Position numbers and translations under genes: made by a program
Notes under the pieces: generated by a model
What the model was told of the DNA's origin: nothing
Databases searched by the model: none
Seen by the model: the letters and a program-made list of their open reading frames with translations, nothing else
Shown: positions 34,900-40,806 of the stretch, one piece after another
Layout of the letters: every line of letters begins with the position of its first letter
How positions within the stretch are numbered: the stretch's first letter is position 1
DNA from: Bacteroidales bacterium
GTDB lineage: Bacteria; Bacteroidota; Bacteroidia; Bacteroidales; F082
Reading direction: 5' to 3'
Length of the DNA stretch: 64,000 nucleotides
Assembly: GCA_045655965.1 (NCBI GenBank)
Contig: JAZOQH010000015.1
Location: 212 to 64,211, forward strand

Positions 34900-37149
34900 A
34901 TGAAAAAAAGCATCTTACTTTTACTTTTAACATTATTCTCATTAAATCTGATTTACGCTCAAACAAACACAATTGAGCCAGAACTTCAAGAAGCATTAAA
35001 TCAAAAAGGCGATGAAATGATTAGTGTCAACATCATTTTAAAATCGCAAGCCGACGTACATAAGCTACAGCAAATCGCTGCAAAAGCCAACGACAGAAAA
35101 AGCAAGAGAGAAGTCGTTGTCAATGAGTTAAAGAGTTTTTCAAAAAGCACACAATCAGACCTCATGTCAATACTCGATGCTGAAGCAAAGAGCGGCAAGG
35201 TTGAAGACATAAGATGCCATTGGCTGGTCAACGCCATCAGCTGCAGCGCAAGCAGCGACGTCATTTATCTCATTGCCAGACATAATGACGTAGAGGTCAT
35301 CGCTTACGACGAAATGAAATATCTGTTGTGGGATGAAGAAGTCAAGGCTGCCGAACCTGCACGTGGCATGACACAAAATATCACACACGTCAAAGCCGAC
35401 GATGTATGGGATTTAGGATATACAGGAGAAGGCGTCATGGTAGCCGTCATCGACACAGGCGTCAACTTCAACCACATAGATTTGGCAGACCACTTATGGG
35501 ACGGTGGCGAGGAATATCCAAACCACGGATATAACACAATAGAGAACAGTCATGATGTGTCAGACGGCTTCGGTCACGGCACACACTGTGCAGGCGTAGT
35601 CTGCGGCGACGGGACATCAGGCACACAGACAGGCATCGCTCCTAATGCCACATTGATGTGTATCAAGGTCATGGACGACAGTGGCTACGGCAGTGCGACA
35701 AGCATCAGCGCTGGCATGGAGTTCGCCATAGAACACGGCGCCGACGTCTTGAACATGTCGTTAGGAATTCCTTTTGCATCAGCAGCAGTAAGAGAAATGT
35801 TACGCGAAGCATGTGTCAACGCATTGCAATGTGGCATAGCAGCAGCAGTAGCAGTAGGTAACGACGGACAGTTACAAATTTCATTCCCAGTGCCTAACAA
35901 CGTGAGAGTTCCTGGCGGTTGCCCTCCACCATGGATTCACCCTGACCAAGAAAGCAACGCCGGCGGATTGTCATGCTGCATTGCTGTTGGCGCTGTAGAC
36001 TTCAACAACGTGAGAGCTCCTTTCTCATCATACGGTCCTTTCACATGGCAAGAGACATCTTACGCAGATTATCCTTACGAACCAGGCATGGGTCTCATCC
36101 GTCCTGACCTCAGCGCTCCAGGCGTCGGCATCATCTCTGCCAACCCAAACAACAATAACGGACACGTCAGCATGGACGGTACCTCACAAGCAGCACCTTG
36201 CGTGGCAGGTGTGATAGCTCTTATGTTGGAAAAAAATCCAGAACTCACTCCAGCAGAGATAAGCATGATATTAGAGACAACAGCAGTGAAGATTGAAGAC
36301 AACAAAAACAACTACACCGGTTCTGGATGCATCGACGCATTGGCAGCAATACAAAGCATCGAAGGCGGTGAACCTGATGTAGAAGAATGCCTTCCAACAA
36401 CAGAAGTAAACATCATCTATGTTGACGAACATTCAATAACATTATCATGGAATTCTGTGGAAACAGCAAATAGTTACGACATACATTGCAACGACAATTT
36501 CCTCATCAACGTAACAGACACAATATTCATGGATATGATTTTAACACCTGATACAGAATATTGCTATACAATAGTAAGCGTATGTGAAGAAGGCAAATCA
36601 GAACACAGCGAAGAAGTCTGCGCTACTACATCAGGAATAGAACCATGTCCAACTCCAAAAAATCTCAACGCCACAATAGCACAAGACGTTCCTGATTACA
36701 ATCACACCTACATGGTAACATTGAGTTGGGAAGCCACTTCTTATTCAGATAAATATGAGATTTATTTAGACGGAGAATTCTTGGCAGAAACAACAAGCAC
36801 TGCATACTTAGTTGGTTTCGATGATGAAGGAAGTCACTATTTCACTGTTGTCAACGACTGCCAATACATCGACTCACCTCATTCAGAAGCATACGAATTT
36901 ACAATTATCGACGATGCGATAGAAGAATACGAAAACAACTTTGAGATATACCCAAATCCAGTCGATGATGTCTTATACATAAAATCAGACAATAACATCA
37001 AAGAAGTTAACATCTATAATATCGTTGGAATTAAGGTGGTAACTGTCAGCGGTCAGCAATCAGCAATCAGCGTTGACATGAGCGGACTCAGCTCGGGAGT
37101 TTACTTTGTTGAAGTTGACGGAAAAACCTTTAGGGTAATTAGGAATTAG
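34900..37149 (+). CDS. S8 (subtilisin-family) serine peptidase with FN3-like repeats and T9SS CTD
   Basis: Catalytic triad contexts VAVIDTGV, HGTHCAG and GTSQAAPCVAG. It has a signal peptide and the CTD IYPNPVDDVLYI…SGVYFVEVDGKTFRVIRN. Confidence 0.9.
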   Translation: MKKSILLLLLTLFSLNLIYAQTNTIEPELQEALNQKGDEMISVNIILKSQADVHKLQQIAAKANDRKSKREVVVNELKSFSKSTQSDLMSILDAEAKSGKVEDIRCHWLVNAISCSASSDVIYLIARHNDVEVIAYDEMKYLLWDEEVKAAEPARGMTQNITHVKADDVWDLGYTGEGVMVAVIDTGVNFNHIDLADHLWDGGEEYPNHGYNTIENSHDVSDGFGHGTHCAGVVCGDGTSGTQTGIAPNATLMCIKVMDDSGYGSATSISAGMEFAIEHGADVLNMSLGIPFASAAVREMLREACVNALQCGIAAAVAVGNDGQLQISFPVPNNVRVPGGCPPPWIHPDQESNAGGLSCCIAVGAVDFNNVRAPFSSYGPFTWQETSYADYPYEPGMGLIRPDLSAPGVGIISANPNNNNGHVSMDGTSQAAPCVAGVIALMLEKNPELTPAEISMILETTAVKIEDNKNNYTGSGCIDALAAIQSIEGGEPDVEECLPTTEVNIIYVDEHSITLSWNSVETANSYDIHCNDNFLINVTDTIFMDMILTPDTEYCYTIVSVCEEGKSEHSEEVCATTSGIEPCPTPKNLNATIAQDVPDYNHTYMVTLSWEATSYSDKYEIYLDGEFLAETTSTAYLVGFDDEGSHYFTVVNDCQYIDSPHSEAYEFTIIDDAIEEYENNFEIYPNPVDDVLYIKSDNNIKEVNIYNIVGIKVVTVSGQQSAISVDMSGLSSGVYFVEVDGKTFRVIRN

Positions 37150-37307
37150 GAATGTGGAATTAGGAATTGAGGAGTTAGGAATTGAGGTAATGTAATAACT
37201 TTATTGTTGACTGCAGGAATTCTTTTTTCAAAGACGCCACATTTTAGAACTTTAGAATTTTAGAATTTGAATTCTAGAGTTCTAGAGTTCTAGAGTTCTA
37301 GAATTCT
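37136..37307. repeat. arrays (aattagga/attgagga; tttagaat/ttctagag x4) after the S8 peptidase stop
   Basis: Seen directly. The S8 stop codon lies in the first array. Confidence 0.9.
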
Positions 37308-37413
37308 CCCCTGCGTTAGGGATTGGAGCGGCATCCTTTTTTCGCGAAGGCGGAGACGAAGCGGAAAAAGATATAGCGGAAAGCCCGACGGCTTGCCGGA
37401 ACGCCCAGAAAAG

Positions 37414-37671: not shown

Positions 37672-40600
37672 ATGGATTACAATTTTAATGAAGTAGAAAA
37701 GAAATGGCAAGAATATTGGCGCGACAATAATATCTATAAAGTTGATATTGACAAGAATAAGCCAAAGTTTTATATCTTAGACATGTTCCCATATCCATCA
37801 GGAGCAGGTCTTCATGTGGGTCACCCTCTCGGTTATATAGCATCTGACATCTATGCTCGTTACAAACGTCTCAAAGGCTTTAACGTCCTTCACCCAATGG
37901 GTTACGACGCTTACGGTCTCCCAGCAGAGCAATATGCTATCCAAACCGGCACTCACCCTGCAATAACAACAGAGAAGAACATCAATCGTTATCGCGAACA
38001 AATGGATAAGATTGGTTTCTGCTACGACTGGGACCGCGAGGTACGCACCAGCGACCCTAATTATTACAAATGGACACAGTGGACTTTCATCCAGCTTTTC
38101 AATTCTTATTATTGTAACCAAGCTAAGAAGGCTCTTCCTATCGCTGAACTCGTCAAGATTTTCGAACAAAAAGGTTCAGAAGGTTTGAACGCTGCATGCA
38201 GCAAACCGCTCTCATTCACAGCAGAGGAATGGAAAGCCATGAGCGAGAAAGAGCAACAAGAAATCTTGATGAACTATCGCCTCGCTTACTTGGCAGACAC
38301 TATGGTTAACTGGTGTCCAGAACTCGGCACAGTACTCGCCAACGACGAAGTAGCCGACGGTCTCTCAGTCCGCGGCGGTCACCCTGTAGTACGTAAGACC
38401 ATGAAACAATGGTTGCTCCGTATCACAGCTTACGCAGAACGTCTCCTCGAAGGTCTCGACACCATCGAATGGAGCGAGTCAATCAAAGAAGTACAACGCA
38501 ACTGGATCGGCAAGTCGATGGGTGCATCATTATTCTTCGACATCGCTGATAAAGACATCAATATAGAAGTGTTCACCACACGTGCCGACACTCTCTTCGG
38601 AGCAAGTTTCATGGTGTTGGCTCCTGAACACGAAATGATAAGCAGCCTCGTCACTGAAGAACAACGTGCTGCTGTTGAAGAATACGTCACATGGGCTAAG
38701 AACCGCTCAGAACGTGAACGTATGGCAGAAGTGAAGAAAGTATCAGGCGTATTCACCGGTGCTTACGGCATCAACCCATTCACCGGCGCAAGAATACCAA
38801 TCTGGGTAGCTGACTACGTACTCATGGGCTACGGCACAGGCGCTATCATGGCAGTTCCTGCTCACGACAGCCGCGACTTCGCTTTCGCTCGTCACTTCGA
38901 CCTCCCTATCATCCAAGTCGTCGCTAAACCTGGCGAAGAGCCATCAGATGCTTCTCAATGGACAGAGTCATTCGACGCTAAAGAAGGCGTGATGGTCAAC
39001 TCTGAGTTCCTCAACGGCCTCACAGTGAAAGAAGCTATCGCAACAATGATTCAAAAGGTAGAAGAAAAAGGCATCGGCAAAGGCAAGACCAACTACCGTC
39101 TCCGCGACGCTATCTTCAGCCGTCAACGTTATTGGGGCGAGCCATTCCCAATCTATTATAAAGACGGAATGCCTTACGCTATCGACGAAAGCAGACTCCC
39201 TCTCGAGTTGCCTCCTATCGATGCATACAAACCAACAGAAACAGGCGAACCTCCATTGGCACGCGCTAAGAACTGGACAACAGAAGACGGTTGCCCTCTC
39301 GAAACAAACACAATGCCTGGCTTCGCTGGTTCAAGCGGCTACTACCTCCGCTATATGGATCCTCAAAACAATAACGAATTCATCAGCAAAGAAGCTAACG
39401 ACTATTGGCAACAAGTCGACTTATATATCGGCGGCGCCGAACACGGAACAGGTCACCTTATCTACAGCCGTTTCTGGAATAAGTTCTTATTCGACCTCGG
39501 CGTGATCTGCAAAGACGAACCATTCAAGAAGATGATCAACCAAGGTATGATCCAAGGCCGTACAAGCTTCGTATATCGCGTCAACTTCGAAAAGATGGCA
39601 GAATATAAAGCTTGGGAAGTCATCAAAGACAACAAACTCGGAGTCAAGTTCGTGAAAGACTTCAAGGTTGGTCACCGTAAGTTCGACTTTTTCTGCCAAG
39701 AAAAGAATTTAATAATAGAAATCAAGAAAGTGTCATCACTCGAAAAAGTAGCTGACGCTTACGAAAATATAGCTAAAGACTTAGGTTGCAAGATATTGCT
39801 CATCCCTATCCGTCAGGTCCTCATCGATGAAGACTTCACTGTTGTAAAACAAAAAATCCAAGACCTCATCGACGGTAAAGACGTTCCTGCATTTGAAGAT
39901 GTTGAAATGCTCGACGCACCACGTCTCTACGTTTCAAAGAATATCCCTGGAAGAGAATTCTACAGCGACCCTATCCGCGTCGACATCAGCATGGTCCACA
40001 ACGATATCCTCGACACAGAAGAATTCAAACAATGGCGTGACGACCTCAAAGACTCTAAGTTCATCTTCGAACATGACAAAGACGGCAACCCTATCTACGT
40101 CTGCGGCTGGGAAGTTGAAAAGATGTCTAAGTCAAAATTCAACGTACAAAATCCTGACGACCTCGTAGCAAAATACGGCGCCGACACATTGAGACTTTAT
40201 GAAATGTTCCTCGGGCCTCTCGAGCAATCAAAACCATGGGACACTCAAGGTATAGAAGGCGTATATCGTTTCATCCGTAAGTTCTGGAGATTATACACAG
40301 ACGAAAACAACGAGTTCTCATTCAGCGACGAGCCAGCAACAAAAGAAGAGTTGAAGTCATTACATAAACTCATCAAGAAAGAAGAAGACGATATCGAACG
40401 TATCTCTTTCAACACCGTCGTTTCTGCTTTCATGATCTGCGTCAACGAACTCACAGACCTCAAGTGCAACAAACGCGAAATCCTTGAGCCTCTCGCTATC
40501 ATGGTATCGCCTTACGCTCCTCACCTCGCTGAAGAGTTATGGCATCAAATGGGTCATGAAGACAGCGTAGTGACACAGAAATTCCCAGAATTCGTAGAAA

Positions 40601-40806
40601 GCTACGTCGTTGAAAACAACTTCACATATCCAGTATCTATCAACGGCAAGAAACGCTTCGACTTGGAATTGCCTATCACATTAACTCCAGCAGAGATAGA
40701 AAAAGCAGCTATCGAGACACCGGAAGCAGCAAAATGGATCGGCGACAAGAGCATCAAGAAAGTCGTTGTAGTTCCAAAGAAGATTATCAATATCGTAATA
40801 GGATAA
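37672..40806 (+). CDS. leuS: leucyl-tRNA synthetase, unusually long (1044 aa)
   Basis: HIGH motif (HVGHPLGY) and KMSKS at 40120-40134, a CP1 editing domain, and a LeuRS-typical N-terminus ([14 protein letters not shown]). It contains an extra insert of about 110 aa at 39583-39921. Confidence 0.95.

Follow-up and report, generated by a model that had tools for sequence, protein, structure and literature searches.

How does a nuclease-family domain come to lie inside an essential aminoacyl-tRNA synthetase (aaRS), and what becomes of it there? The question is raised by leuS, the leucyl-tRNA synthetase (LeuRS) gene in a 64,000-nucleotide stretch of DNA from a Bacteroidales bacterium (GTDB lineage Bacteria; Bacteroidota; Bacteroidia; Bacteroidales; F082; assembly GCA_045655965.1, contig JAZOQH010000015.1, forward-strand positions 212 to 64,211), hereafter the window, with positions counted from its first letter. 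The 1044-residue product had been predicted to carry, just upstream of the KMSKS loop, an in-frame domain with the PD-(D/E)xK fold of the DUF559 and Vsr nuclease families, and Pfam, a hidden Markov model (HMM) search, hhalign and Foldseek all support that identification. The explanation that we favour, in which we place about even confidence, is that the domain is an anciently captured, non-essential and non-catalytic appendage under purifying selection, with an old deletion allele in the window's genus.

The host protein scores 946 bits against TIGR00396, the equivalog-level NCBIfam profile for bacterial LeuRS (cut-off 548), and matches the Pfam domains tRNA-synt_1, tRNA-synt_1_2 (217.9 bits) and Anticodon_1. 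It has the HIGH motif in the form HVGH (residues 48-51), a CP1 editing domain, the KMSKS motif and an anticodon-binding domain. Positions 39583-39921, the segment singled out by the original prediction, translate exactly to residues 638-750 of this open reading frame (ORF); the module as delimited by alignment runs to residue 753. The parts of the gene that matter here are as follows.

37672..40806, + strand: leuS coding sequence, 1044 residues plus stop (ORF list, Pfam, TIGR00396)
39550..40119, + strand: leucine-specific domain (LSD) region, residues 627-816, between the NQGM and KMSKS anchors (1h3n alignment)
39583..39930, + strand: inserted module, residues 638-753, about 116 residues (protein alignment A1, DNA alignment)
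39595..39882, + strand: core with the DUF559/Vsr fold, residues 642-737 (Pfam, hhalign, AlphaFold2, Foldseek)
39877..39930, + strand: C-terminal linker of the module, residues 736-753, about 18 residues (predicted local distance difference test score, pLDDT, below 60; alignments; shuffle test)
40120..40134, + strand: KMSKS catalytic loop, residues 817-821 (read from the sequence; invariant in alignment A1)

The insertion site is well defined. Query residues 634-812 stand in for residues 584-632 of Thermus thermophilus LeuRS (1h3n), its LSD, which places the segment in the region predicted. We measured the distance between the NQGM anchor (residues 623-626) and KMSKS in 84 related loci: it is 190 residues in the window, 182-192 across the window and its insert-bearing relatives, and 74 in most Bacteroidales, with a third class of 101 residues described below. 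The enzyme had been judged about 100 residues longer than its Bacteroidetes counterparts, and it is indeed 1044 residues long against approximately 917-970 for other Bacteroidales LeuRS. Enzymes of the 74-residue type read ...FVYRIK-DSN-KFVS... at this point, a hairpin with a turn of 4-5 residues, and the module takes the place of that turn at the tip of the first LSD beta-hairpin.

The identity of the module was established by several routes. The proposed check against Pfam PF04480 (DUF559) gave a significant match for the excised segment, 26.2 bits over a gathering cut-off of 20.6 (E 7.4e-6, profile positions 16-98 of 109). A profile built from 8 inserts and searched against 1.84 billion representative proteins returned 104 matches at E<=1e-3, nearly all of them short free-standing proteins of 100-200 residues and none an aaRS; the DUF559 signature was seen in the 18 matches later aligned (alignment A5). 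The top match of that search, P0122 (180 residues), was set aside as a free-standing protein, as it looks like a frameshifted fragment of an insert-bearing LeuRS. The family is visible only by such exhaustive HMM searching: when the insert alone was used in a word-indexed homologue search, P0001 was the only protein recovered. Comparison of the insert profile with a profile of free-standing DUF559 proteins by hhalign gave 99.1% probability (E 1.3e-18, 94 columns).

Structure prediction agrees with the profile evidence. The AlphaFold2 model of the insert, whose underlying alignment included free-standing DUF559 proteins, has a mean pLDDT of 83.5, exceeding 90 over the core, and the module is thus predicted to fold as an independent unit, as had been suggested for checking. 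The modelled core runs helix, three strands, helix, strand, two helices. Its best Foldseek match in the PDB is 3hrl, a DUF559 structure (E 8.4e-5, template modelling (TM) score 0.76 on the target, root-mean-square deviation 2.5 Å), followed by 3r3p, the catalytic domain of the homing endonuclease I-Bth0305I (E 2e-3, TM score 0.69 on the target); apicomplexan and ciliate mitoribosomal proteins were also matched, at E about 0.02 only. A survey of the PD-(D/E)xK superfamily puts Vsr, DUF559 and I-Bth0305I in one group (PMC3424549). A full-length model from a shallow 15-sequence alignment had a mean pLDDT of 39 and was confident only at the insert (residues ~640-740, pLDDT 70-87) and its flanking strands, where the same core topology reappeared. 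Searches of the insert against the PADLOC and PHROGs libraries, covering defence systems and phages, gave nothing meaningful, and the literature found documents no activity for DUF559 proteins themselves. The domain has a nuclease fold, which does not by itself make it a nuclease.

Whether it could still be one depends on its active-site residues, two groups of which are located as follows.

39685..39687, + strand: D672 (in FDF), the family-invariant Asp (by alignment, corresponds to the metal-binding Asp)
39718..39726, + strand: E683-I684-K685 (alignments of inserts and of free-standing DUF559 proteins)

The claim that the candidate Asp and the E-x-K residues are retained stands in part. D672 and E683-I684-K685 are present, and no exception to D672 or E683 occurs among the 22 distinct inserts; the lysine is replaced by asparagine in three of the 22, and the family His, the neighbouring Asp and three Arg residues have been lost. 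In free-standing DUF559 proteins the helix-1 E/W pair, R-R-Q, D-F, E-x-D-G-x-x-H, D..R and the Arg of L-R-F are invariant or nearly so, including D108, G109, H112, D119, R122, R135 and Q86. At the equivalent positions of the inserts the second Asp is K (K685 in the window; 19 of 22) or N, the Gly is K or R, the His is deleted, and D119, R122, R135 and Q86 are replaced. The E-x-D-G-x-x-H of the family reads E-I-K-K-V-S-S in the window, and the full catalytic signature E-x-D-G-x-x-H ... D..R ... L-R-F is absent from the LeuRS domain. What has been kept is the family core: E644, W648, D672, F673 and E683 are invariant in 22/22 inserts and in the free-standing set, and G667, R669, F671, E640 and K641 are invariant across the 22 inserts. 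Vsr-type enzymes use the His as general base and Asp residues in catalysis, and the role there of the Asp homologous to D672 has been described (PMC3239194). Because that general base and an Asp are lost, Vsr-type catalysis appears very unlikely in the LeuRS domain. Nor is the insert basic, with an isoelectric point (pI) of 7.9 for the core and 5.5 for the whole module, against 8.5-9.9 for most free-standing DUF559 proteins.

The module has been in LeuRS for a long time. It occurs in the window's genus, in a sister group of herbivore-gut metagenome-assembled genomes (MAGs; 75-77% identity), with relatives labelled Candidatus Limimorpha, in one Lentimicrobiaceae MAG (65% identity) and in 16 loci from metagenomes of gut, fermenter, lake and sediment. 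On the backbone tree its versions, at least 22 of them distinct, belong to one Bacteroidales-level clade, in which most enzymes carry the insert. Insert and backbone distances are correlated (Mantel r 0.71, p<=0.0002), and the major groups are common to both trees. No insert is much more similar than its host enzyme: for every within-class pair the module distance is at least the backbone distance. Codon usage resembles that of the host gene, as had been remarked, with GC content at third codon positions (GC3) of 0.50 in the insert and 0.51 in the backbone, so that the insert is fully ameliorated by this measure. No terminal direct or inverted repeats bounding the insert were found above chance, and a scan of viral contigs gave no relatives. 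Within the genus, omega (dN/dS) is 0.02-0.12 for the insert and 0.02-0.06 for the backbone, with insert dS equal to or above backbone dS; because omega is this low, the domain is constrained rather than decaying. At greater distances insert dN is about 3-4 times backbone dN. Judged from these comparisons, the insertion appears ancient rather than recent and to have co-diverged with its host, and the pattern suggests a single capture, after which inheritance was mainly vertical, though some exchange took place.

The two closest insert-bearing backbones, those of the window and L005, differ at 3.8% of DNA positions in the backbone and 10.5% in the module (p 4e-8). This would mean a faster rate of evolution in the module, or alleles older than the gene around them. 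We rejected this difference as proof of separate histories, since a faster module rate can explain it.

The closest relatives of the window enzyme come in two forms, of 1044 and 955 residues. The shorter form lacks one sharply bounded segment of the module.

39613..39876, + strand: segment missing from the 955-residue alleles, residues W648-D735 (alignments)

P0004, a 955-residue enzyme without the core, is 99% (N-terminal) and 98% (C-terminal) identical to the window enzyme outside the module; P0002, the nearest insert-bearing relative in the alignment, has flanks 94% and 96% identical and an insert 97% identical to that of the window. At the DNA level the window and L001, a 955-residue allele, are 96-97% identical across the gene and 54-60% at 39585-39950, with sharp edges in sliding identity. 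The core is dispensable for LeuRS function.

The short alleles retain 27 residues at the site, more than the 74-residue type has, giving an inter-anchor length of 101 residues. This scar matches the edges of the window module with z of 7-9 against shuffles, and the edges of distant insert-bearing enzymes (L008, L093, L100) with z of 4-6; against any 29-residue window within the core there was no comparable match (best score 16). Its left part corresponds to the start of the DUF559 helix, and it keeps a diverged version of the linker at residues 736-753. The empty alleles are thus scar-carrying deletion derivatives and not pristine target sites, and because all share one architecture we read them as having a single origin.

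Insert and scar alleles are interleaved in the genus tree. Four clades are of mixed state (window, L001, L002, L005 and L015; L003, L004, L016 and L017; L012 and L019; L007 and L020), each with bootstrap support of 92-100%, and parsimony needs five state changes in 197 of 200 replicates. The flank columns shared by the two classes differ between them at 36-51% of sites regardless of backbone distance, so both classes are old. They have either been exchanged by homologous recombination or long been kept together. No second LeuRS locus from the same assemblies was found among the 80 best GTDB loci. Neither form is rare in nature: the sequences fall in clusters of 229, 73 and 30 insert-bearing and 45 scar members, on contigs of up to 287 kb from independent studies.

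Around leuS, similarity between the window and L001 is lost upstream of ~37330 (window positions of about 37070-37330). Upstream of that point the window has an S8 protease with a type IX secretion system tail (34900-37149), where L001 has a giant Big_2/LRR protein. Just downstream of leuS, scar genomes carry a Y1 transposase gene of the IS200/IS605 type (L001:10807-11196, L002:8363-8818) that the window lacks. As these flanking genes differ, the neighbourhood of leuS has been rearranged between near-identical backbones.

The LSD hairpin site is an insertion hotspot across Bacteroidota. LeuRS of Flavobacteriales and Cytophagales (among loci L021-L038, which include others; L025, L033, L022 and L029) carry unrelated segments of 127-169 residues there, none of which matches a Pfam family. 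L068, from a termite-gut Bacteroidales, has at the same LSD site a low-complexity tandem repeat rich in Pro, Ser and Ala, preceded by NHQSYKEYLQ, which resembles the left edge of the scar. Because these segments and the repeat occupy it, the site evidently tolerates many insertions. A 189-residue segment at the same site in a Saprospiraceae MAG LeuRS (L057, 3001-6120) was not counted as DUF559. It has Y-D-F and L-V-I-E-V-T motifs and a full-length but weak match (Pfam E 0.019, insert HMM E 0.011, hhalign 6%), with T at the second-Asp position, and could represent, in a distant lineage, either an independent insertion of DUF559 or one that has diverged very far. Elsewhere in the window enzyme, residues 144-202 (38101-38277) form a second extra segment of ~59 residues, which has no counterpart in T. 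thermophilus or E. coli LeuRS and is found in 14/14 close relatives aligned; a Pfam DUF7167 match at residues 179-202 is weak.

What the domain does must be considered against what is known of the LSD, which takes part in tRNA-Leu binding, positions the KMSKS loop and rotates by ~33 degrees in the catalytic cycle; it varies in length, is absent from some LeuRS, and can be replaced by a tetrapeptide with 55% of activity kept, being dispensable for catalysis (PMC3643597). In the explanation that we favour, a free-standing DUF559 gene would have entered leuS in frame in a single ancient event, at the first LSD hairpin's turn, and then been inherited mostly vertically inside a working housekeeping enzyme. 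The domain would still fold as an autonomous restriction-endonuclease-like unit, while the loss of the Vsr-type catalytic residues means that cleavage of nucleic acid is most likely gone. Purifying selection would act because the domain must fold cleanly within an essential enzyme. We infer a further reason: attached to the LSD/KMSKS unit, which is mobile and contacts tRNA, the domain may be a non-catalytic accessory that adjusts how tRNA-Leu is bound or how the LSD moves. The 27-residue scar would go back to an old deletion of the core within the window's genus. Insert and scar alleles would since have been shuffled among lineages by homologous recombination or kept as a long-lived polymorphism, which would explain why enzymes 99% identical elsewhere differ by a whole domain. 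Both interpretations offered by the original prediction, a domesticated selfish endonuclease and a nucleic-acid-binding appendage, remain live.

Several observations weigh against this explanation. The remaining D...E-x-K reads as a canonical PD-(D/E)xK triad, and with D672, E683 and K685 in place the domain may be active through canonical rather than Vsr-type chemistry. Its near-neutral charge does not favour strong nucleic-acid binding. As the full-length AlphaFold2 model failed outside the insert, it does not place the packing of the domain against LeuRS, tRNA or KMSKS. By our reading of the sequence, the insertion lies in the first LSD hairpin and not in the later, tRNA-contacting hairpin of the E. 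coli enzyme. Finally, a few enzymes of the 74-residue type (L041, L042, L044, L045) are interspersed among insert-bearing lineages, and the insert and backbone trees disagree at some deep nodes; together these indicate some horizontal exchange, whether gain or loss.

The alternative that survives best, although we think it rather unlikely, is that the domain is a functionless passenger: the LSD tip would be permissive, the low dN/dS would reflect the cost of misfolding in an abundant essential enzyme, and the polymorphism would be effectively neutral. Natural scar alleles in 99% identical enzymes show that the core can be dispensed with, unrelated Flavobacteriales segments and the L068 repeat fill the same site, the LSD itself can be exchanged for a tetrapeptide with 55% of activity retained (PMC3643597), and the hallmark catalytic residues are gone. 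Yet the insert is as constrained as the LeuRS backbone (omega 0.02-0.12) and persists in lineages whose backbones are down to ~65% identical, a degree of conservation that is high for ballast which one deletion could shed. The charged residues D672, E683, R669, E640, K641 and E644 are invariant and not obviously needed for folding, and the persistence of both classes across the genus, with backbone dS of up to ~1, is hard to obtain by drift alone.

We attach a low probability to the domain being an active PD-(D/E)xK enzyme that has reverted to canonical chemistry, either as an unspliced homing endonuclease or as a tRNA-directed nuclease; were it so, the intact DUF559 copies in UvrB and HsdS described below would be young examples of the same life style. 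The first of these, an active selfish element, is improbable in our view. An unspliced in-frame homing endonuclease would use the D672/E683/K685 triad to cut insert-less leuS and be copied in by recombinational repair; the scars would be cleavage-resistant survivors and the interleaving a homing cycle. In its favour, the presence/absence polymorphism is sharp-edged and lies at a conserved site of an essential gene, next to the catalytic loop; a canonical D...E-x-K triad has been kept; the catalytic domain of I-Bth0305I is matched in fold; and the in-frame copies in UvrB and HsdS show that DUF559 genes do land in host genes. Against it, no two inserts are closer to each other than their hosts are, dS in the insert equals or exceeds that in the backbone and the trees largely co-diverge, leaving no sign of horizontal sweeps, and the scan of viral contigs found no relatives. 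The His and Asp of Vsr-type and EDxHD enzymes are lost, K has become N in three lineages, nothing corresponds to the additional DNA-binding module that I-Bth0305I has in its NUMOD repeats (PMC3239194), and omega of 0.03 is unusually strict for a selfish nuclease. The ORF is also continuous and in frame, with no splicing intron or intein. An intein had been discounted from the boundary residues, and rightly so: the insert begins N-F-E-K and ends ...P-R-L-Y before V-S-K-N, with no Cys, Ser or Thr at the start and no His-Asn plus Cys, Ser or Thr at the end, and no Hint or intein domain in LeuRS was matched by Pfam. An intron is ruled out by the continuous ORF, and an Rfam scan of 39000-40500 gave chance-level matches only. 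If in-frame homing were nonetheless true, it would be a route for selfish nucleases into essential genes that needs neither intron nor intein.

The second form of an active enzyme, a moonlighting nuclease or phosphodiesterase acting on RNA, for example tRNA-Leu, or in a stress or defence response, we regard as very improbable. The D/E/K triad and R669 are conserved, the mobile LSD on which the domain sits approaches the tRNA (PMC3643597), and the long retention of both alleles could reflect a condition-dependent benefit. Against this, nothing in the defence-system or phage libraries matched, the module has a neutral to acidic charge and no longer has the catalytic His of its family, and a nuclease tethered beside the acceptor end of an essential tRNA would be hazardous.

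That nothing unusual is present at all can practically be dismissed: LSD length is known to vary (PMC3643597), but most Bacteroidales have 74 residues with a short turn, so the alignment across the order rules out an ordinary lineage-wide LSD, hundreds of member sequences on long contigs from independent studies rule out an assembly or gene-calling artefact, and the DUF559 homology is significant by three independent methods.

Each part of this architecture has precedents. Free-standing DUF559 proteins (PF04480; 3hrl, NGO0050 of Neisseria gonorrhoeae) have the same fold and homologous sequence in a domain of ~95-110 residues, and share with the LeuRS copy the helix-1 E/W pair, the D-F motif and the strand-3 Glu. 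The LeuRS copy differs in being nested, in lacking E-x-D-G-x-x-H, D..R, L-R-F and R-R-Q, and in not being basic; LeuRS copies score 13-26 bits against the Pfam profile, compared with ~100 bits for intact DUF559 members. I-Bth0305I (EDxHD family, 3r3p; PMC3239194) likewise combines a Vsr-like nuclease fold with insertion into conserved host genes. It belongs to a self-splicing group I intron, however, has NUMOD DNA-binding repeats and keeps the catalytic Asp/His/Asp (PMC3239194). The LeuRS copy, by contrast, is read in frame with its host, shows no horizontal spread, and is without a DNA-binding extension, the His and one of the Asp residues. The known LSD variants, namely the extra hairpin of E. 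coli, the split LSD of Aquifex and the GKDG tetrapeptide of M. mobile (PMC3643597), occupy the same place before KMSKS and, like the module, are variable, modular and not strictly required for catalysis. They are expansions and contractions of the LSD, whereas here a foreign nuclease-family domain is nested in it and is polymorphic among near-identical enzymes. A precedent for a Vsr-like fold that has lost catalysis and become a non-catalytic RNA binder is the RAP domain of FASTKD4 (PMC11879112), although that protein is eukaryotic and organellar, has FAST motifs and has a positively charged cavity, in contrast to the near-neutral insert. Full-text literature searches on DUF559, LSD variants and in-frame endonuclease insertions in aaRSs returned no description of this architecture, which combines two known themes, the accretion of domains by aaRSs and the settling of nuclease genes in conserved host genes.

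LeuRS is not the only conserved protein with a DUF559 domain in frame. One lies in UvrB (P0145 / L085:32-1564), between ...IRPTGLIDPEIVMKPV and GQVEDFINE..., and another in the S subunit of a type I restriction system (P0153 / L086:3001-4713; also L087, L088), where it separates the two target-recognition domains; the 4 contigs that carry it have an ordinary hsdM-hsdS-hsdR arrangement. Both are intact, scoring 103 and 108 bits with the full E-x-D-G-x-x-H signature, and GC-rich palindromes such as AAAGCCCTCCCTGCAGGGGAGGGTTT directly follow each copy. With intact domains and palindromes these copies look recent, whereas the LeuRS copy is old, eroded and without flanking repeats; they may be young versions of the capture seen in LeuRS, and the two cases suggest that the route is recurrent.

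Many ORFs of free-standing DUF559 proteins (P0001, P0125, P0129, P0131) have terminal stretches such as PPNPLKGE, PQPPKGG and PSPPTGG. These look like translated palindromic repeat DNA, a hint that DUF559 genes may travel with a small repeat-bounded element. P0123 is a tandem array of three DUF559 domains and P0124 one of two. Among the LeuRS sequences, P0086 (988 residues) and P0227 (1105 residues) probably have mis-called N-terminal extensions. Insert-bearing enzymes (P0114, P0240-P0244, P0253) are often named only 'class I tRNA ligase family protein' at NCBI, where scar and other relatives are named 'leucine--tRNA ligase'; the insertion is probably the cause of the downgraded name.

Nesting or adding domains is one known way for aaRSs to acquire new functions. 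In this LeuRS a nuclease-family domain has been added to the LSD, a mobile module that contacts tRNA and sets the position of the KMSKS loop, and nature has supplied a control, in enzymes 99% identical elsewhere from which the core is deleted. Two questions are therefore directly testable: what an extra LSD domain does to tRNA-Leu selection, charging and editing, and why a domain that can be dispensed with is held under constraint as strict as the synthetase's own, with both alleles still present across the genus. More widely, the finding joins a pattern of DUF559 genes landing in frame in conserved proteins (LeuRS, UvrB, HsdS), and such landings could be how selfish nuclease genes become permanent protein domains.

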